A stretch of 64,000 nucleotides of DNA from Candidatus Magasanikbacteria bacterium RIFCSPHIGHO2_02_FULL_48_18 (GTDB lineage Bacteria; Patescibacteriota; Patescibacteriia; Magasanikbacterales; UBA922): NCBI GenBank assembly GCA_001784285.1, contig MFQC01000007.1, positions 4,197-68,196 of the forward strand, read 5' to 3'. The notes under the pieces were generated by a model. It saw nothing but the letters and a program-made list of their open reading frames with translations, made no database searches and was not told where the DNA came from. How positions within the stretch are numbered: the first letter of the stretch is position 1; the number at the start of each line of letters is the position of its first letter. Below are positions 4,736 to 43,575 of this stretch, piece by piece. Made by a program: the position numbers and the translations under genes.

Positions 4736-6127
4736 CTATTGTCCCAAACCCCGCAATATCACATTGATCGTCCGAAGAAGAATAGACAGGTCGAGAATCA
4801 ACGATCTGTTTTTTATATAATACAAATCGTATTGCAGTTTTTGCAGGGATAATTCGAGAGTATCGGTATAATTTTGATGAAGCACTGCCCAACTGGTGAG
4901 TCCCGGCCTGACCACATGGCGGAGGGGGTAATACGGCATGCGCGCTTCCAGTTTTTCCACAATTTCCGGCCGCTCCGGTCGCGGGCCAATGAGGGTAATG
5001 TCGCGGCGCAGTAAATTCCAGCTTTGAGGCAATTCATCAAGACGGGTTTTTCGCAAGAATTTTCCAATCGGGGTTATCCTTGTATCTCCTTTTTTTGCAA
5101 ATTGTACGCCTTCTGTTTCCGCGCTACCATCTTTGGAGAGCGCATACATGGACCGGAATTTATACAAGAAAAACACGACACCGTTTTTTCCTGCCCGTTT
5201 TTGTTTTATGAGCACAGGACCGCGGGAGGTTGTTTTGATGAAGAACGCCAAAAACGGGAACAATGCAAGAAAGAAAGTCCCAAGAACGAGAGAGGCGACA
5301 ATATCAACCATGCCACGGAATCGTTCATACATGGGTCGCCGTGTATTTTTAAGATGATCCAAAAACCATCCTTCGGAGAATGTTGAGGGCGGAATTCTTC
5401 CTGTAAGCAATTCATAAAAGGAAGTGAGATCGTTTACTTGAATAGGATAAAACAACAGCTGATACAATTCTTGGAGCGCTTTGGTGTCTTTACGAAGGTG
5501 GGGGGCGATAATAATCAGTTGGGCGTGATGCCGTTCCGTAATGGAACGAATATCCGAGAGTTCATGGTAGACGGAGTATGAATGCGTGTTTTCCGCGGGC
5601 CCCTCCATGGTTGGGTCAATGAGCGCGACCACGCGGTATCCTTTTTCCGGGTGAGCAAAAAGGAGGTCGATGAGCTCATTGGTTTCGGCTGTTCGGCCGA
5701 CAAAGACGACATTGACGAGCAATGCTTCTGACAAGAGCAATGCATGAAAAGCAATGCGCCAGAGAGCGCTCAGTCCATACCCAAACAATACCGACAAGAC
5801 TAGGATGGTTTTTGGAGTAATGGAACGGCTCGGGATGCTATAAAAGAAGATGACGCTGAAAACCGTACTCATGAACGCGGCTTCCATGAATCGGCGATAC
5901 CACCCTCGCACGGTGGCTTGCCGTTCCAGATCATAGAGGCCGTTGATGTAATTGACCAATAGCCACAATACAAACACGATGCCAAAGAGCGCCGTGTGCT
6001 GTTGTATCTTGACTCCGGAAGGAATTGTCCAATATCGGATGGTGAGCGCCAATACAAAACCACATCCGAAAGAAAGTAGGTCGCCAAGGGCAAGTGTGAG
6101 TTGTTTGATGCGGTAGGACAGCGGCAT
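4736..6127 (-). CDS. undecaprenyl-phosphate sugar phosphotransferase (WbaP-like polyprenyl glycosylphosphotransferase)
   Basis: N-terminal TM segments and C-terminal bacterial sugar transferase domain ...GKNGVVFFLYKFRSM...KFLRKTRLDELPQSWNLLRRDITLIGPRPERPE... Start set at MPLSYRIKQ (6127) rather than the ORF-track start, which overlaps the next gene. Confidence 0.8.
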   Translation of the reverse strand: MPLSYRIKQLTLALGDLLSFGCGFVLALTIRYWTIPSGVKIQQHTALFGIVFVLWLLVNYINGLYDLERQATVRGWYRRFMEAAFMSTVFSVIFFYSIPSRSITPKTILVLSVLFGYGLSALWRIAFHALLLSEALLVNVVFVGRTAETNELIDLLFAHPEKGYRVVALIDPTMEGPAENTHSYSVYHELSDIRSITERHHAQLIIIAPHLRKDTKALQELYQLLFYPIQVNDLTSFYELLTGRIPPSTFSEGWFLDHLKNTRRPMYERFRGMVDIVASLVLGTFFLALFPFLAFFIKTTSRGPVLIKQKRAGKNGVVFFLYKFRSMYALSKDGSAETEGVQFAKKGDTRITPIGKFLRKTRLDELPQSWNLLRRDITLIGPRPERPEIVEKLEARMPYYPLRHVVRPGLTSWAVLHQNYTDTLELSLQKLQYDLYYIKNRSLILDLSILLRTINVILRGLGQ

Positions 6128-36775: not shown

Positions 36776-37201
36776 CTACCCGCCCTTGGCCCGGGCGAGC
36801 TGAAGTATCCAGACGCAGACGATGGCGCACTTCATCGCCTGCTTCGCGTTGTCCGGCGTGGCGAACAGGCGCTGGGCCATGCGCCCGGCCGCGGCCGAGA
36901 TATCGCCACCATTGGCCGACATCAGAAAATCGAGCATGTGGCATTCGTTGTCCGTCAGGGCGAAAGTCTCGACGCACTCCCTCTCATCGACGGTGCATGT
37001 CTCGAGGGCCTTGGCGACCCTCCGAAAGAGTTCAATGAACATGACAGACCCGTCCGGCGCCGCGTGCCGGACGTTTGTGGTGATCAGGGCACGAATCGCG
37101 CCCTCGTTCGCGGCCTCGCGGACCAACCGGTCCACGAAGGCCTCGCCTTCCTCTTGCGTGTACATGAGCCCTCCGGTTGCGAGTTGCGTGGACGTTAGCA
37201 T
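36776..37201 (-). CDS. hypothetical protein in GC-rich islet
   Basis: 141-aa ORF with protein-like composition (MLTSTQLATGG...AAAGRMAQRLFATPDNAKQAMKCAIVCVWILQLARAKGG). True ATG. About 62% GC region. Competing +-strand ORFs here look like GC-rich frame artefacts. No function recognised. Confidence 0.4.
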   Translation of the reverse strand: MLTSTQLATGGLMYTQEEGEAFVDRLVREAANEGAIRALITTNVRHAAPDGSVMFIELFRRVAKALETCTVDERECVETFALTDNECHMLDFLMSANGGDISAAAGRMAQRLFATPDNAKQAMKCAIVCVWILQLARAKGG

Positions 37202-37254
37202 AGGTCATTTTCTTTTTCAAGGGGCAATACCATCTATATCGCTTTTTTATTTTA

Positions 37255-37263
37255 TGCTATACT
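37255..37263 (+). promoter_or_regulatory. extended -10 element TGCTATACT upstream of ftsE
   Basis: Identical 9-mer also at 43592-43600 and 45001-45009, each 20-100 nt upstream of a + strand start codon. Confidence 0.35.
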
Positions 37264-37288
37264 TTTTATAATTGATCGCGTTTTTGGT

Positions 37289-37969
37289 ATGATCACCCTT
37301 AAAGGATTAACAAAGCAATACAACAAAGACACGCTGGCACTTGATAATATTTCGGCCCATATTGGGGCAGGAGAGTTTGTTTCTATTGTCGGCCAAAGCG
37401 GAACCGGCAAAACCACGCTGATCAAAATTTTGATTGCGGAAGAAAAGCCCACTGCCGGAACTGTGGAAATAGGGGGATGGGATATTTCGGGTATTCGCAA
37501 ATCGGATATTCCTTTTTTGCGTCGCCAAATTGGCGTTATTTTCCAGGATTTTAAATTATTGCCCAAAAAAACAGTTCAAGAAAATGTATCATTTGCGCTC
37601 CAGGTGGCCGGGGAGACCCAGCATCGCATTCATGATGTGGTCCCGCGCGTTCTTGATATTGTGGGATTGGGGTATAAGGCCGACCGATATCCCGGGCAGT
37701 TGTCCGGAGGAGAACAACAGCGCGTTGTTATCGCGCGGTCGCTTGTCCATCGGCCAAAAATTGTCGTCGCGGACGAACCAACCGGAAATTTGGACGCGAT
37801 CAATACATATGAGGTGATTGAAATTTTAAAAAAAATCAATGAATTTGGAACCACCGTCGTTCTGGTGACGCACAATAGGGAAGTGGTCAATAGTCTCAAA
37901 AAGCGCGTGATTACGCTTCACAACGGCAAAATTATTGCCGATGAACAAAACGGGAAATATCGCCTTTAA
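37289..37969 (+). CDS. ftsE: cell-division ABC transporter ATP-binding protein FtsE
   Basis: Walker A GQSGTGKTT, signature LSGGEQQRVVIARSL, Walker B IVVADEPTGNLD; 226 aa. Followed directly by ftsX. Confidence 0.85.
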   Translation: MITLKGLTKQYNKDTLALDNISAHIGAGEFVSIVGQSGTGKTTLIKILIAEEKPTAGTVEIGGWDISGIRKSDIPFLRRQIGVIFQDFKLLPKKTVQENVSFALQVAGETQHRIHDVVPRVLDIVGLGYKADRYPGQLSGGEQQRVVIARSLVHRPKIVVADEPTGNLDAINTYEVIEILKKINEFGTTVVLVTHNREVVNSLKKRVITLHNGKIIADEQNGKYRL

Positions 37970-37979
37970 ATTTTCTTCC

Positions 37980-38888
37980 ATGGTTTCTTTTTTGCGTGTT
38001 ATCAAGTTTGCGTTTCAAGATTTGGCCCGCAATATCAGTTTGTCCGCGATGACAGTTCTTATTTTGATTCTCATGCTTTTGTCCGTGAATACATTATTGG
38101 TGATTCGCGTATTGACGAGAGAGGCGATCACATCCATCAAAAGCCAAATTGACGTGAGCGTCTATTTTGAAAATGCCGTGTCTCAACAAAGTATTGACGA
38201 GGTGATTTCATTTGTCACTTCATTTCCCGAAGTGATCGGCACGGAATACCAATCCAAAGAGCAGGTGCTTGAGGCATTCAAAAAAACCCATGAAAACGAT
38301 AAACATATTTCAGAAGCGCTGGCTGAACTGAAAGAAAATCCGCTTGGCGCTGTTTTAATTATTCAGACGCGCGATCCGGCAGAATATAAAAATATCATTG
38401 ATGCCCTATCTGTCCCGGAGTACGAAGATATTATCGAAGCAAAAACGTTTGACGACACAGAAAAAGCGATCGAACGCATTGATATGATTACCAAACAAGT
38501 GGAACGATTGAGCTATGCGTTGACGATTTTTTTCGCGGTTATTGCGTTTCTCATCATTTTTAATACCATTCGAGTGGCTATTTATACCCAGCGCATTGAA
38601 ATTGCCATCAAAAAATTGGTCGGGGCCACGGATTGGTTTATTCGCGGGCCTTACATCGTTGAGGCCTTTCTATTTAGTGTGTTGAGCACCTTTTTGACTG
38701 CAGTCATTGTTTTTTTTGCATTTCGCGTTCTTGACCCCTATGTCGCCGCTGTGTTTGAACAGCCGTCCATCTTGACACAATACTTTTTTTCCCATATATT
38801 ATTGTTGCTTGGCGGACAGTTTATGGCCGTCCTCTTTTTAACTATCATGACCAGTTTTCTCGCTATGCGAAGACATCTTCGGGTCTGA
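37980..38888 (+). CDS. ftsX: cell-division permease FtsX
   Basis: Four TM segments with a large first periplasmic loop; adjacency to ftsE. Start set to ATG 37980 just after the ftsE stop. Confidence 0.8.
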   Translation: MVSFLRVIKFAFQDLARNISLSAMTVLILILMLLSVNTLLVIRVLTREAITSIKSQIDVSVYFENAVSQQSIDEVISFVTSFPEVIGTEYQSKEQVLEAFKKTHENDKHISEALAELKENPLGAVLIIQTRDPAEYKNIIDALSVPEYEDIIEAKTFDDTEKAIERIDMITKQVERLSYALTIFFAVIAFLIIFNTIRVAIYTQRIEIAIKKLVGATDWFIRGPYIVEAFLFSVLSTFLTAVIVFFAFRVLDPYVAAVFEQPSILTQYFFSHILLLLGGQFMAVLFLTIMTSFLAMRRHLRV

Positions 38889-38901
38889 GAAAATATATAA
38901 T

Positions 38902-38972
38902 TCGGGGCTCGTCTAATGGTAGGACTTCAGGTTTTGGTCCTGACTATCGGGGTTCGAATCCCTGGCCCCGAG
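38902..38972 (+). tRNA. tRNA-Gln (anticodon UUG)
   Basis: U1-A72 pair (TCGGGGC/GCCCCGA) and G73, both Gln-tRNA hallmarks; anticodon loop TTTTGGT; T-arm CGGGGTTCGAATCCCTG. Confidence 0.75.
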
Positions 38973-38986
38973 CAAATACAGGTTTA

Positions 38987-39072
38987 CTGAGTTTTCTTGG
39001 TTCTCTCAGTTTACTAAGTTACAAAAATAACTTAGTAAACTCAGTTAACTTAGATCAACTAAGAAAACTGAG
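38987..39072. repeat. nested inverted-repeat (double palindrome) element between tRNA-Gln and tRNA-Asn
   Basis: Inner IR 39005-39020 ctcagtttactaagtt / 39029-39044 aacttagtaaactcag (1 mismatch, 8-nt loop). Outer IR 38988-39003 ctgagttttcttggtt / 39057-39072 aactaagaaaactgag (2 mismatches). Direct repeats gtttactgag / gtttactaag. Confidence 0.7.
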
Positions 39073-39078
39073 ACAAAT

Positions 39079-39457
39079 TCGGCGGTAGCTCAGCGGTAGA
39101 GCAGTTGGCTGTGAGAAAAGCAGCTCTCGATAGAAATATCGGGATGAAAACGAGGTGAATTGCTGGAAGTCCTCATTCCAACGGTGGAGCAGGATAATCA
39201 GCAGCCAATCTTTTGTTCAGGGAGAGAACAGTGCTTTCGCACTGTAACCCTGTCGGAAGCAGGTTCAGAGACTATCCATTTATTGGAGTACCTTGTGCCG
39301 GACGTACATTGTCTGTCCGATACTGGGGAAGCGCCTCGCACCCTAACGTTTCCGATTCAATCGGAATTTGGCGAGGGTGATAATATAGTCCATCCTTTTG
39401 GGAAACCGGAAGACTGATGTAACCAATTGGTCGTCGGTTCGAATCCGACCCGCCGAG
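39079..39457 (+). tRNA. tRNA-Asn (anticodon GUU) interrupted by an insertion with group I intron hallmarks; exon 1 39079-39112, exon 2 39420-39457
   Basis: Joined exons give a 72-nt cloverleaf: TCGGCGG-TA-GCTCAGCGGTAGAGC-A-GTTGG-CUGU|UAA-CCAAT-TGGTC-GTCGGTTCGAATCCGAC-CCGCCGA-G. U1-A72 and G73 as in bacterial tRNA-Asn; anticodon loop CUGUUAA. Confidence 0.8.
39113..39419 (+). ncRNA. candidate group I self-splicing intron (about 307 nt, no ORF) in the tRNA-Asn anticodon loop
   Basis: P1: exon GCUGU (39108-39112) pairs with internal guide GCAGC (39120-39124), giving U.G at the 5' splice site. Core elements in canonical order: P AATTGCTGGAAG (39158-39169), Q AATCAGCAGCC (39196-39206), R GTTCAGAGACTA (39263-39274), S AATATAGTCC (39382-39391); R/S and P/Q are mutually complementary. 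Insertion ends in G (39419). Confidence 0.75.
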
Positions 39458-39458
39458 C

Positions 39459-39483
39459 AAAAAATCCCGTGAGGGATTTTTTG
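39459..39483 (+). terminator. rho-independent terminator after the tRNA cluster
   Basis: aaaatccc-gtga-gggatttt hairpin plus U-run. Confidence 0.7.
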
Positions 39484-39564
39484 GTAGAAGAAGATCAAAA
39501 AGTTATCCGTATAACTTTTATAGAGTTGGACGAACGGCCACTCTTGTGTTATCATAATTTTTAT

Positions 39565-39975
39565 ATGGTTTTTTCTCTTAAACAAATTGTTGCATTTCTC
39601 CTATTTTTCGTCCTTCTATGGTCGTGCGTCGGTGTTGGGATTGGCATGATTGGCCACACACTGCTCAGTGGGCACGATCCTGAACACACAGAAATAGCAT
39701 CGTCGCAGAACTGTTGCGCCACGGACACAACAGGAGAATCTTCCGAGAATACTACGGCCACTCATCATACGCTCGCATCGGCTGTGTTGGTTTCTTTTGA
39801 GTTTGCAGTTTTGGTATTGGGTATCGCCTTATGTATCTCCGTATTGCGTCCCTTGCGTGCGTTTTCTCTTTGGTGTCGTTCGTATCTTCTTCAATGGAAA
39901 TATCATTGGGCATATTTTGCCCTGCTGTTTCGGCGATTATTTTCAGGAGGGATTCTTCATTCCAAGGCTTGGTAA
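39565..39975 (+). CDS. small hypothetical membrane protein (His/Cys-containing), upstream of the HMA-domain protein
   Basis: MVFSLKQIVAFLLFFVLLWSCVGVGIGMIGHTLLSGHDPEHTEIASSQNCCATD... with two or three TM segments. ORF-track start 39427 overlaps the tRNA-Asn 3' exon, so trimmed to ATG 39565. Confidence 0.35.
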   Translation: MVFSLKQIVAFLLFFVLLWSCVGVGIGMIGHTLLSGHDPEHTEIASSQNCCATDTTGESSENTTATHHTLASAVLVSFEFAVLVLGIALCISVLRPLRAFSLWCRSYLLQWKYHWAYFALLFRRLFSGGILHSKAW

Positions 39976-40038
39976 TGCGCGCATGAAAGCGTCCATGAGT
40001 ACTGATGTGCTCATTTTTTCATTGTGTTATACATCCAT

Positions 40039-41451
40039 ATGAAAGAAAAAATCTATTTTATCGGCGGCATGCATTGCGCCTCGTGTGAACTCTTAATTGA
40101 AAAAAGAGTGTTGCAGGAAAAAGGCGTCAAGGTTGCCGATGCATCACTTGGAAAGAATGCTCTTCGGATTGAATATGAAGGGAACGCGCCGCATGTGAAC
40201 GAATTAAACGGGTGGTTCAAAAACGATGGCTATACCTTTTCTGAAACGAAACCACAGCCGAAAAAACAGCCGTTATTCTATGTTCAAAAAGGACAGCAGG
40301 GTATACGCTTGGATAGAAAACTTCTTCGAAAAAAGCTTGGTACGTTGGCTCGCGTGGGGCTTGTGTTTTTTGCCCTCTATCTTATAGAAAAAACAGGCGC
40401 CGCGACGTACGTGAATGTCAGTGACAATTCGTCGCTCGGTATTTTTTTCCTCTTTGGGCTGGTCGCAGGGCTCTCCAGTTGCGCGGCGTTGGTTGGAGGA
40501 ATTCTTTTGTCGCTCACGAAACAGTGGAATGGGCAATATGGATATGACGCACCCACAAGGAAAAAAATGATCCCGCATTTCTTTTTCCATGGGGGGAGAT
40601 TGTTTGCCTATGGGCTTTTTGGTGCACTGCTTGGCGCCCTGGGGAAAGCGATTGCGCTTGAGCAGGTGACGCTCTACGCCCTTATTACTCTTTTGGTTTC
40701 GTTCGTCATGCTGATGATTGGCCTTCAAATGGCAGGGGTCACGTGGGCGGAGCGATTTCAGATTCGCATGCCCAAAATAGTGACGCGACGTATTGCGGGG
40801 TCTGAAGGAAAAAAGGGGAATCAGCTTCCATTTGCGATTGGCGCCGGCACGGTGTTGCTCCCATGCGGGTTTACGTTAATCGCCCAAGGAGTCGCGCTCA
40901 CGTCCGGAAGCGCCACTCGCGGGGCTTTGATTCTTCTGTTCTTTGTCCTTGGGACGATGATTCCTCTTCTTGGCATTGGTCTTGTGAGTGTCCGTGGAAC
41001 AGCCAACCCAAATCGAGCAAGAGTGTTTTCCTTTTATGCCGGCGTTGTTCTCATCATTTTTGCGCTGTATAATGTGAATGGCCAATTGAATGTCTTGGGG
41101 TTGCCAAGCGTGAGCGATGTGTTGGCAAAAGATGCGGCGAACGAAAACGTGGAGGTTGAAGAGCCTGCAAACACAACAGGAGAACAACAGGTGACCATGG
41201 TTGCAAAAGGATTTTCCTACACGCTCACAAGCCAGTCCACCATTCGTCCGGGCATTCCGACAAAACTGATTGTGAATAATCAAGGCATCCAAGGGTGTGG
41301 GGCATTTTTATCCGCTCGAGGGCTCAAAAGCGGTTTTGTACAGTTGCAACCCGGGAAAAATGTGATTGATCTTGGGAAGCCGAAAAAAGGAACATACAAA
41401 ATTACGTGTTCGATGGGCATGGTTGCGCCGGTAACGATCCGGGTGCAATAG
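40039..41451 (+). CDS. heavy-metal-associated (HMA) domain membrane protein with DsbD/CcdA-like transmembrane core and C-terminal small beta-sandwich (cupredoxin-like) domain
   Basis: N-terminal GMHCASCE metal-binding motif (GMxCxxC); about 6-8 TM helices with Cys residues (SSCAAL; LPCGFTL); C-terminal ...GKNVIDLGKPKKGTYKITCSMGMVAPVTIRVQ. Confidence 0.55.
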   Translation: MKEKIYFIGGMHCASCELLIEKRVLQEKGVKVADASLGKNALRIEYEGNAPHVNELNGWFKNDGYTFSETKPQPKKQPLFYVQKGQQGIRLDRKLLRKKLGTLARVGLVFFALYLIEKTGAATYVNVSDNSSLGIFFLFGLVAGLSSCAALVGGILLSLTKQWNGQYGYDAPTRKKMIPHFFFHGGRLFAYGLFGALLGALGKAIALEQVTLYALITLLVSFVMLMIGLQMAGVTWAERFQIRMPKIVTRRIAGSEGKKGNQLPFAIGAGTVLLPCGFTLIAQGVALTSGSATRGALILLFFVLGTMIPLLGIGLVSVRGTANPNRARVFSFYAGVVLIIFALYNVNGQLNVLGLPSVSDVLAKDAANENVEVEEPANTTGEQQVTMVAKGFSYTLTSQSTIRPGIPTKLIVNNQGIQGCGAFLSARGLKSGFVQLQPGKNVIDLGKPKKGTYKITCSMGMVAPVTIRVQ

Positions 41452-41485
41452 CGCATAAATAGTGTATTATCCGGAATAATCTTCT

Positions 41486-41639
41486 ATGTCAAATTCTGAT
41501 CCAAAGCAACTTTATGCGGCATTGACTGCTAAGCTTGTGTTGCTTCGACGCCGTGCTCGGAAAATTCGAAAGACAATGCAAAACGATATTGATCGCGAAG
41601 AATTGGAAAAGACAAAGAAAAACATTGATGCCATGTAAT
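41486..41639 (+). CDS. small basic hypothetical protein (50 aa) preceding the large acidic protein
   Basis: MSNSDPKQLYAALTAKLVLLRRRARKIRKTMQNDIDREELEKTKKNIDAM; below the ORF-track length cut-off. Ends 8 nt before the next ATG. Confidence 0.25.
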
Positions 41640-41646
41640 AATTTCT

Positions 41647-43575
41647 ATGCCCGAGACTACTGAAGATCAAACACATCTATTGGTCGAGGCCGCCGCGCAA
41701 GAGGAGGGGGAAGAGGAGGGAGCCACTCTGGAAGAGGAAATTCCTGATCACGAAGCACCCTTAAAAGAAGCTGTTGTTTTTTTAGAACGGGGATTACATG
41801 ATATTACTTCGGTTACAGAAGAAGAACGGCAAGCATTTCAAATTCTTCTTGACCGCACAGAAGAAGAACAGCTGCCTCCGGAAGTCCGGAAACGCTATGC
41901 CGAGCAAATTCAGATGATGCTTGATCAGTTCACCTCTCTTTCGTCCAAGTATAAGGAGGAACTGGAACATTTCGTAGAAGGAATGGTTGGGTCTAAATAT
42001 GGAACACAAGATTTTTTTCAATTTGCGAACCAAGAACGCGTGGCGCGTACAAAATATGCCGCGTCCGCTGATATAGAGAAACACACACGTCCCTTTGTTG
42101 AACGTCTTGATACTTTGGAAGATCAAGAACATCACATCGACGAAGAACTGCGAACATTAGAACTTCAAGAAGGCACGCTTCGCCAGATGGCTGACTTTCG
42201 TCGATCCCTCATGAAGGAGATTCTTCGGAATGATGTTCTTGAAACAGAACAATACGACGCGTTATCAAAACGGGTCGCGGATCGGCTCAAACGAGAATCG
42301 TCCGAATGGGCCGCGTATGAAGAAGAAGGGGTTGACGCATTTCAAGATGATCTTGTGAACCAACCACGATTTCCAGAAGCAAGCCGAATTGTGTTTTTGG
42401 ATGCGGATCGCTTATCCGAAGAAGAAAAAGCAACGCTTCTTGGCGCAAAACACGTGGAAGAGATTATCAACATACGAGATGCTTATAATCTCCCCTGCAC
42501 AACCGATGAGGAATTATCCCACATTCAGCGCGCGGTGAAAGCGGGGGGATTCTATACACAGGATGGCCACTTTATGAGCGAGCGTTCTTTGGTATACGTT
42601 ACCGGCAATCAACCCACAAAAAAAGAACGGATGCGCGGTCTCGCAAAGGACGGCTCTCTTCCATACAATTATGGGTTATTGGTCCATGAACTGCGCCATG
42701 CCACGCAAAGTAGAGTCTCTCGCGGAGTGTTGGGGAAATCTCGCGATCAGGCGGTCACAGCGCTTGTTGAAGCGCAAGCCATGCATTCGGCGCCATTTGT
42801 GGACACTATTGATGCGCGAAGAACATTGAAAGGACGCCAATATGGCATAGACGAACCTATGGCGGATCAAGCATGCACTGTTATAGAAACACTGAACGCA
42901 ATGGGTTTTTCTCAAACGGATATTGCCATTTTTTTGCATGGCACAGACAAAAAATATGATGTGCTCAAGGATCAATACGGGGGCATACAACGGCGAATAA
43001 AAACTGTGATGAAAGAGCGCGGTATTGGTTATGGCGATCTGGAGCGGCGCAAAGAACGGCAAAAACGTCGTCATCGTATTGGTCGATTAGAAGCCAAAGC
43101 CATTACTCAAGAAGAATATATGGCGCTTGCGGATCCGGAACAAGTGAGACAGATTGGCGCTCGGGTAAAACCGGATGTGGAGGCGCGTCTTTTGGATGGG
43201 ACTCCTATTATTCCAATTTTCAGTAAGGAGGAAGAGCCCCTGATTGATATTGAGTTGGTTATCTTTCCAAATGATAGTGACCATCCTTATACCTTAGAAG
43301 AGCACGTTGGTTATGCCATGCGGCTTGATGCAGAGGGAAGTCCGTTGTTTCGACCCATTCGACAATATCTGGAAGATGGCGCCGTAAAAGAAGAAAATAT
43401 TGAAAGAGATGAACCTTTTGATGAACAAGAGGTTCTTGCGGTGTTATCCGAACGGGCAGGTGAGGGGAGGCTTGGTTTTGGTGTTGATTGTATTGTTAAT
43501 CATCCGGGGTATGACGCATTTGAGAAAAAAATGGTGGCGGCAGGGAATCGCTCTTCGACCCATCCATCCCCTTGA
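41647..43575 (+). CDS. large acidic hypothetical protein (642 aa) with an internal HExxH motif
   Basis: Glu-rich N-terminus (AAQEEGEEEGATLEEE); LLVHELRHATQ (HExxH) at about residue 355. No other family recognisable. Confidence 0.5.
   Translation: MPETTEDQTHLLVEAAAQEEGEEEGATLEEEIPDHEAPLKEAVVFLERGLHDITSVTEEERQAFQILLDRTEEEQLPPEVRKRYAEQIQMMLDQFTSLSSKYKEELEHFVEGMVGSKYGTQDFFQFANQERVARTKYAASADIEKHTRPFVERLDTLEDQEHHIDEELRTLELQEGTLRQMADFRRSLMKEILRNDVLETEQYDALSKRVADRLKRESSEWAAYEEEGVDAFQDDLVNQPRFPEASRIVFLDADRLSEEEKATLLGAKHVEEIINIRDAYNLPCTTDEELSHIQRAVKAGGFYTQDGHFMSERSLVYVTGNQPTKKERMRGLAKDGSLPYNYGLLVHELRHATQSRVSRGVLGKSRDQAVTALVEAQAMHSAPFVDTIDARRTLKGRQYGIDEPMADQACTVIETLNAMGFSQTDIAIFLHGTDKKYDVLKDQYGGIQRRIKTVMKERGIGYGDLERRKERQKRRHRIGRLEAKAITQEEYMALADPEQVRQIGARVKPDVEARLLDGTPIIPIFSKEEEPLIDIELVIFPNDSDHPYTLEEHVGYAMRLDAEGSPLFRPIRQYLEDGAVKEENIERDEPFDEQEVLAVLSERAGEGRLGFGVDCIVNHPGYDAFEKKMVAAGNRSSTHPSP

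Follow-up and report, generated by a model that had tools for sequence, protein, structure and literature searches.

The question raised by positions 39079–39457 of the stretch of DNA analyzed here (64,000 nt at full length, referred to as the window) is whether they hold a tRNA-Asn(GUU) gene that is interrupted within its anticodon by a group I intron, and whether such an intron would be new. Both had been proposed in an earlier reading of the letters and open reading frames (ORFs) alone, referred to below as the sequence-only reading. The presence of a group I intron that splits tRNA-Asn(GUU) at these coordinates was confirmed. Very probably, the locus represents tRNA-Asn(GUU) of a Magasanikbacteria-like bacterium within the Patescibacteria, the gene being split between U35 and U36 by a 307-nt intron of subgroup IA architecture. 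The type of intron is not new: the intron lacks an endonuclease gene and is an ordinary representative of a family that has already been published and validated by experiment.

All parts of the split gene are on the forward strand. Exon 1 (39079–39112, 34 nt) contains the acceptor 5’ strand, the D arm, the anticodon stem 5’ strand, and the loop positions 32–35 (CUGU). Exon 2 (39420–39457, 38 nt) contains the loop positions 36–38 (UAA), the anticodon stem 3’ strand, the variable loop, the T arm, and the acceptor 3’ strand; the discriminator is G39457, and no CCA is encoded. The intervening 307 nt (39113–39419) were identified as an IA-like group I intron lacking a homing endonuclease gene by the Rfam model RF00028, by covariation, and by homology. 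The insertion site is located between the anticodon nucleotides U35 and U36 (CUGU / intron / UAA). When the two exons were joined, ARAGORN folded the resulting 72 nt into a canonical tRNA-Asn(GTT) with the anticodon loop CTGTTAA. This spliced product matched the intronless tRNA-Asn of two related metagenome-assembled genomes (MAGs; L012 and L016) in length and features.

The split tRNA-Asn gene escaped standard annotation: only tRNA-Gly, tRNA-Thr, and tRNA-Gln were reported for the window by plain ARAGORN and by the Rfam tRNA model. When introns were allowed, ARAGORN labeled the split gene as tRNA-Ser(gga) with a 290-nt intron, which is a miscall. As a result of such misses and miscalls, a genome of this kind would wrongly seem to be devoid of tRNA-Asn and less complete. 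The practical value of the finding therefore lies in annotation, namely in tRNA-Asn genes that are taken for “missing”.

The scan of the window with the Rfam group I intron model (Intron_gpI, RF00028) yielded a single match in the region, with 79.4 bits compared to a gathering score of 50, an E value of 1.6e-18, and coverage of model positions 1–253. The core of this alignment (P3, P4/P5, P6, R, P3’, P8, S, and P9) was correct. Its 5’ end was wrong, as the first 46 model positions were placed on upstream repeats (39024–39070), generating a spurious P1/P2. The minimum free energy of the precursor was -144.3 kcal/mol (z = -5.3 compared to shuffled sequences). In the corresponding fold, three arms of the tRNA (acceptor, D, and T) were recovered along with P1, P2, P3, P4, P5/P5a, an extended P6, P8, and P9, and two hairpins were present between P7 and P3’. 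The P7 pseudoknot was placed on this fold by hand.

In the resulting structure, P1 (39108–39124) is formed by the exon sequence GCUGU (39108–39112) and the internal guide GCAGC (39120–39124), with the U39112.G39120 wobble pair at the 5’ splice site and a loop, L1, of only 7 nt (GAGAAAA). P1 is followed by the P2 hairpin of the minimum free energy fold (39125–39144), which has 8 bp and a GAAA loop. The 5’ strand of P3 (CGAGGUG, 39151–39157) pairs with its 3’ strand (CGCCUCG, 39332–39338). P4 is formed by 39161–39166 and 39198–39203 and encloses P5 and P5a (39169–39195); its span, 39161–39203, holds the elements P (39158–39169) and Q (39196–39206). P6 together with its extensions P6a, P6b, and P6c occupies 39204–39264, an extension that exceeds that of most relatives in length. 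The 5’ strand of P7 (GACUAU, 39270–39275) is located within element R (39263–39274) and pairs with the 3’ strand AUAGUC (39385–39390) within element S (39382–39391), forming a pseudoknot relative to P3. P7 is presumed to be the guanosine-binding helix. Between P7 and P3’ lie P7.1 (39276–39278 with 39284–39286) and the P7.2 hairpin (39291–39327). The P8 hairpin (39339–39379), seen in the minimum free energy fold and by covariation, and the P9 hairpin (39395–39412), with 7 bp and a GAAA loop, complete the structure. The last nucleotide of the intron is the terminal guanosine at the 3’ splice site (omega-G, G39419), which is a G in all 53 aligned homologues described below.

All sequence statements of the sequence-only reading were confirmed. 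The exon boundaries and their splicing to a canonical 72-nt tRNA-Asn(GUU), the insert of about 307 nt with a terminal G, and P1 with its U.G pair were found as proposed, and the coordinates of the elements P, Q, R, and S turned out to be exact, with P/Q forming P4 and R/S forming P7. The group I scan that had been suggested as a check returned the match given above. Together with the spliced fold and P1, this match places a group I intron between anticodon positions 35 and 36 of tRNA-Asn(GUU). The 85-amino-acid ORF that overlaps the core (39160–39417) is present; it has no Pfam match, and L1 comprises merely 7 nt, in agreement with the claim that the intron lacks a homing endonuclease. A P10 helix, in which the P1 loop would pair with the first nucleotides of exon 2 (UAACC), was sought and is absent in the window, where L1 is GAGAAAA. 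In some relatives with a long L1, the guide is directly preceded by GGUU or GUU.

The size of the intron family was analyzed by scanning metagenomes with the pattern ATAGTCC N{18,48} G TAAYCAATTGGTCGT, which combines element S with the start of exon 2. At least 119 stretches matched, and at least 103 complete split tRNA-Asn genes, with both exons on the contig, were all cut at the same site. Among the matches listed, exon 1 ended with CTGT, the intron with G, and exon 2 started with TAAY in 103 of 103 complete split genes, and the introns measured 201–614 nt and represented 92 unique sequences. The family of tRNA-Asn 35/36 introns is thus very abundant in metagenomes.

For the quantification of covariation, 53 distinct members with introns of at most 345 nt were aligned using MAFFT, and the structure of the window intron was projected onto the alignment. 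P6b/c, inner P8, and inner P7.2 are common to few sequences and are therefore poorly tested in this alignment. Standard pairs were found in 88.4% of the cells, compared to 36–46% when the 3’ partners were slid by 1–3 columns. Changes on both sides occurred in 67 of 99 pairs, a number reached in none of 500 shuffles, and the number of compensatory cells was 744, compared to 233 +/- 15 in the shuffles (again reached in 0 of 500). The covariance check of P1–P9 that had been recommended thus upheld the structure by compensatory substitutions.

The individual helices differed in their behavior. In P2, all eight pairs changed on both sides. Compensatory changes were found in four of the seven pairs of P3 (92.1% of cells paired), in P4/P5 (helices 4 and 5), in P6 and P6a (helices 6 and 7; P6b and P6c were found in few relatives only), in all three pairs of P7.1 (helix 11; 97.8% paired), in seven pairs of P7.2 (helix 12; 87.6% paired), in five of the six pairs of the basal P8 helix (helix 13; 85.9% paired), and in six of the seven pairs of P9 (helix 17; 93% paired). 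P1 and P7 were nearly invariant: four of the five P1 pairs did not vary (94.7% of cells paired), the U.G pair was present in 53 of 53 homologues, and five of the six pairs of P7 (helix 10) were identical in all sequences. The near-invariance of these two helices is conservation and not covariation, and it is expected, as P1 is fixed by the anticodon loop and P7 by the guanosine-binding site.

A hallmark of subgroup IA is the presence of the additional helices P7.1 and P7.2, which follow the 5’ strand of P7 and precede the 3’ strand of P3. The window intron has both, as seen in its fold and from compensatory changes. Its architecture is therefore IA-like, in agreement with the published assignment of 25 of 28 introns at the 35/36 site to subgroup IA (PMC13011429). 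In the same study, a phylogenetic tree sets the IA and IC tRNA introns apart.

The sequence-only reading had listed four bacterial host tRNAs for group I introns and had suggested that tRNA-Asn might be a new host tRNA or 35/36 a new insertion site. The list turned out to be out of date, and neither the host nor the site is new. In the preprint by Williams (2020; bioRxiv 10.1101/2020.01.27.920355), the four classical tRNA intron types were expanded to 21. One of these, as cited in PMC13011429, is “Asn.4Ug”, which in the numbering of the preprint denotes a tRNA-Asn whose intron follows loop nucleotide four, with U at -1 and g as the last nucleotide; this type corresponds to the setting in the window, i.e., tRNA-Asn(GUU) at 35/36. 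Nakagawa et al. (mSystems 2026, PMC13011429) examined 95 complete Patescibacteria genomes and described 15 tRNA-Asn(GUU) genes that are split at 35/36 by a group I intron; in 4,934 complete genomes, they found 28 such insertions, 19 of which were from Patescibacteria, representing an enrichment. For the intron of GCA_016700035.1, precise GTP-dependent self-splicing was demonstrated in vitro, and sequencing of the ligated product confirmed the 35/36 site (PMC13011429).

The window gene, including exons and intron, was 60–64% identical to three sequences of Table S3 of PMC13011429 over about 300 aligned positions, with shared core blocks. The identity to the gene of GCA_016700035.1, which was validated in vitro, was 64%; all core blocks were common, and the junction was identical (GTTGGCTGT / ... 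g / TAACCAATTGG). The published Patescibacteria introns thus share the host tRNA, the site, the phylum, and the exon junction with the window intron, and the homologous blocks comprise the GCAGC guide, GGTGAATTG, AATCAGCAGCCAA, GGTTCAGAGACTA, AGCGCC, and GATATAGTCCA. Like the window intron, most published members have no endonuclease gene, and relatives with HNH endonucleases exist both in PMC13011429, where they were found in four Asn introns, and in the metagenome set. Differences were also found. Most relatives have a shorter P6 extension and a smaller P7.2 than the window intron. The P7.1 hairpin and a GAGUA block of the window intron are common to Paceibacteria-type members, but not to the validated Saccharimonadia intron. 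The host of the window intron is Magasanikbacteria-like, unlike the hosts of the published Asn introns in the table of complete genomes. Little is thus added for biology, as the intron type, host tRNA, insertion site, phylum, and self-splicing have all been published, apart from the extension of the family to Magasanikbacteria-like lineages.

The classical bacterial tRNA introns of subgroup IC3 reside in tRNA-Leu(UAA) of cyanobacteria and plastids, tRNA-fMet, tRNA-Ile(CAU) of Azoarcus, and tRNA-Arg(CCU) of Agrobacterium. Like the window intron, they are small ribozymes that lack an endonuclease and interrupt the anticodon loop of their tRNA. In both cases, nucleotides of this loop take part in P1, a U.G pair marks the 5’ splice site, and the intron ends in G. 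However, the host tRNAs and the sites differ (35/36 in the window compared to 34/35, 33/34, and 36/37), and the window intron contains P2 and the IA-type P7.1/P7.2 insert. IC3 introns are not known to have P7.1/P7.2. Subgroup IA includes the phage introns of T4 td, nrdB, and sunY, of the Staphylococcus phage Twort, and of the Bacillus phage SPO1. These phage introns share with the family of the window intron both P7.1/P7.2 between P7 and P3’ and an association with HNH-type homing endonucleases, whereas they reside in protein-coding genes and the window intron in a tRNA gene. A blastn search of the window intron against 50,697 phage records yielded nothing at E <= 0.01.

Three other explanations of the locus were considered. 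It is virtually inconceivable that the group I resemblance arose by chance: P, Q, R, and S are short motifs, which calls for general caution, but an explanation by chance is refuted by the Rfam E value of 1.6e-18, by at least 103 homologues at the same site, and by the strong covariation. A different host tRNA or boundary, i.e., tRNA-Thr(UGU) with an intron at 33/34 or tRNA-Ser(gga) with a 290-nt intron, is very improbable. The latter is the label given by the intron-aware ARAGORN, and the former is in line with the finding that published tools, namely tFind and ARAGORN, call tRNA-Thr(UGU) 33/34 in many relatives that belong to the tRNA-Asn 35/36 family (PMC13011429). That ambiguity is absent here, because an intron shifted two bases upstream would end in A39417 and not in a G. 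Moreover, P1 sets the U.G pair at U39112, the exons match the intronless tRNA-Asn of relatives, and the sequenced spliced products of a homologue with an identical junction confirmed 35/36 (PMC13011429). The tRNA-Ser(gga) reading would need a mispaired anticodon stem and would leave intron core sequence inside the tRNA. Both readings were therefore rejected, based on the A39417 end, the position of P1, and the mispaired stem.

It also seems quite unlikely that the gene is a decaying pseudogene that is no longer spliced, with an intact tRNA-Asn(GUU) elsewhere in the genome doing the work. This explanation draws on a metagenome contig (L001, ENA ERZ27254756) that contains the same intron and is 99.96% identical to window positions 37102–42508, with 2 mismatches in 5407 nt. 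Both mismatches are located inside the split tRNA-Asn gene, and each breaks a base pair: G39108T (position 2020 of L001) affects P1 and the anticodon-stem pair 31–39, and T39378A (position about 2290) affects P8. In addition, the sequence examined is one window of 64 kb. However, all core helices are intact in the window copy, and the U.G pair, the terminal G, and R/S are canonical. The gene is also situated at a conserved ftsX-tRNAGln-tRNAAsn locus, where relatives have a split or an intronless tRNA-Asn, and no other tRNA-Asn was found within the 64-kb window. In the part of Table S2 of PMC13011429 considered here, most Patescibacteria genomes have a single tRNA-Asn, and a genome seldom has copies of one anticodon both with and without an intron (PMC13011429).

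Several points nevertheless weigh against the assignment of the locus to a functional, IA-type split tRNA-Asn gene. The pair-breaking differences in L001 could hint at a relaxed constraint, although they could equally represent assembly errors or tolerated strain variation. Splicing of the window copy is deduced from the homologue in GCA_016700035.1, the view covers 64 kb of the genome, so that a second intact tRNA-Asn could lie elsewhere, and the subgroup was judged by architecture and not by subgroup covariance models. Taken together, the window copy is a real and probably functional member of the family.

The split tRNA-Asn would be spliced by the standard group I pathway. A common transcript of the gene and the upstream tRNA-Gln is probable, and the intron would then fold into P1–P9 with P7.1/P7.2. 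An exogenous guanosine bound at P7 would attack the phosphodiester after U39112, the position of the U.G wobble in P1. G39419 would then take the place of the guanosine in the pocket, and the freed 3’ OH of exon 1 would attack after G39419, so that ...CUGU is joined to UAA... and the GUU anticodon is restored. As no P10 is evident, the exons are presumably aligned and held together by the anticodon stem and the acceptor stem of the tRNA. It is plausible that the organism depends on splicing for its tRNA-Asn.

A further proposal is that this gene is the sole tRNA-Asn and that the intron is kept as an RNA-level checkpoint, which would tie the supply of tRNA-Asn to the GTP or nucleotide status of the cell, and not as a stranded selfish element. 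An idea of this type is raised speculatively in PMC13011429, and we regard it as unlikely for the window intron. If it were true, the decoding of Asn would hang on a guanosine- and Mg2+-dependent ribozyme in a reduced genome that is poor in regulators, and the pair-breaking differences in L001 would represent functional variation in splicing efficiency.

The longer members of the family carry endonuclease genes. Among the matches listed, 29 unique introns had a length of 519–614 nt, and in 28 of these the longest ORF was on the sense strand and comprised 89–125 amino acids. Most of these ORFs carry the motif CxxCGY...EFHH...CxNCHRE. When two of them were compared with Pfam, one passed the threshold of HNH PF01844 (E 2.4e-5, 24.8 bits compared to 21.4), and the other was just under it (E 0.0039, 17.7 bits). 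The HNH ORFs, which encode roughly 100–125 amino acids, are located inside the P1 loop, upstream of the internal guide, and mostly start about 15–40 nt past the 5’ splice site. HNH-type loci include L026, L031, L033, L038, L046, L065, and L134 as well as about 20 further loci; the HNH copy of L048 appears to be shortened or decayed. Because it is devoid of a homing endonuclease, we infer that the window intron is immobile and was retained by vertical descent, whereas longer introns of the same family have HNH in the P1 loop.

The nearest named relatives of the window FtsX belong to Candidatus Magasanikbacteria or Patescibacteria MAGs and are 58–67% identical; among GTDB species representatives, the best match is 63%. 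Based on the FtsX similarity and on synteny, the host is a Magasanikbacteria-like member of the Patescibacteria. If this lineage belongs to the GTDB class ABY1, it is of note that none of four ABY1 accessions of Table S2 of PMC13011429 is among the 15 genomes with Asn introns in Table 1. The neighboring genes in the window are chromosomal housekeeping genes, encoding a ctp protease, a PpiC-type isomerase, FtsE, FtsX, an HMA-DsbD protein, and a DEAD-box helicase. A tRNA-Gln(UUG) gene (38902–38973, forward strand), found by ARAGORN and Rfam, lies 105 nt upstream of the split tRNA-Asn; the two are probably co-transcribed, and the order ftsE-ftsX-tRNAGln-tRNAAsn is kept in relatives.

The relatives differ in the occurrence of the intron at this locus. 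Four metagenome contigs (L002–L005), with FtsX proteins 64–67% identical to that of the window and with the gene order kept, contain a group I intron of 430 or 433 nt at the same 35/36 site. In two GTDB representative Magasanikbacteria MAGs, the same ftsX-tRNAGln cluster is followed by a tRNA-Asn(GTT) gene that lacks an intron (L012 6191–6265 and L016 7979–8051), so that the search of related genomes for an uninterrupted tRNA-Asn, which had been suggested, was successful at the very same locus. The presence of the intron is therefore polymorphic in the group. Among 19 GTDB representative loci around ftsX, none had a group I intron at the Rfam gathering threshold; the intron-bearing relatives were found on metagenome contigs and not in GTDB representatives. 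The intron-containing, HNH-bearing, and intronless alleles of related lineages constitute a useful set for the study of intron gain and loss.

On the contigs L002–L005, a large serine recombinase gene with Resolvase, Recombinase, and Zn_ribbon_recom domains was found on the opposite strand (L002 7656–9152, L003 7235–8953, L004 6025–7269, and L005 5984–7228, all on the minus strand). It starts about 50 nt past the end of the tRNA in L002, and in L003–L005 the range called for it extends over the final ~120 nt of the split gene. This arrangement suggests that a mobile element integrated beside, or into the end of, tRNA-Asn in these four contigs. The window contains no serine recombinase gene at the corresponding position.

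Several further sequence elements were observed around the tRNA genes of the window. A sigma-70-like promoter (38772–38800, TTGACA-17 nt-TATATT), which matches the consensus at 11 of 12 positions, is located within the 3’-terminal part of ftsX and precedes tRNA-Gln by about 100 nt; as a consensus match only, it could drive a tRNAGln-tRNAAsn transcript. The 105-nt spacer between the two tRNA genes contains overlapping inverted repeats (38982–39076) with arms of 14–27 nt and 80–88% complementarity. They are composed of the words CTGAG/CTCAG and CTAAG/CTTAG and might form a processing or termination hairpin. A hairpin directly after the tRNA (39459–39482, AAAAAATCCC-GTGA-GGGATTTTTT), seen by eye, resembles a bidirectional terminator; a consensus terminator scan made no call after the split gene, this hairpin included. 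Downstream of ftsX in a related MAG labeled “uncultured Gammaproteobacteria” (L008), two matches to the Rfam Acido-Lenti-1 RNA were found (4930–4975 on the minus strand and 5101–5146 on the plus strand; 40.9 and 50.4 bits compared to a gathering score of 37). This MAG is probably a Patescibacteria bin to which a wrong taxon name was assigned.

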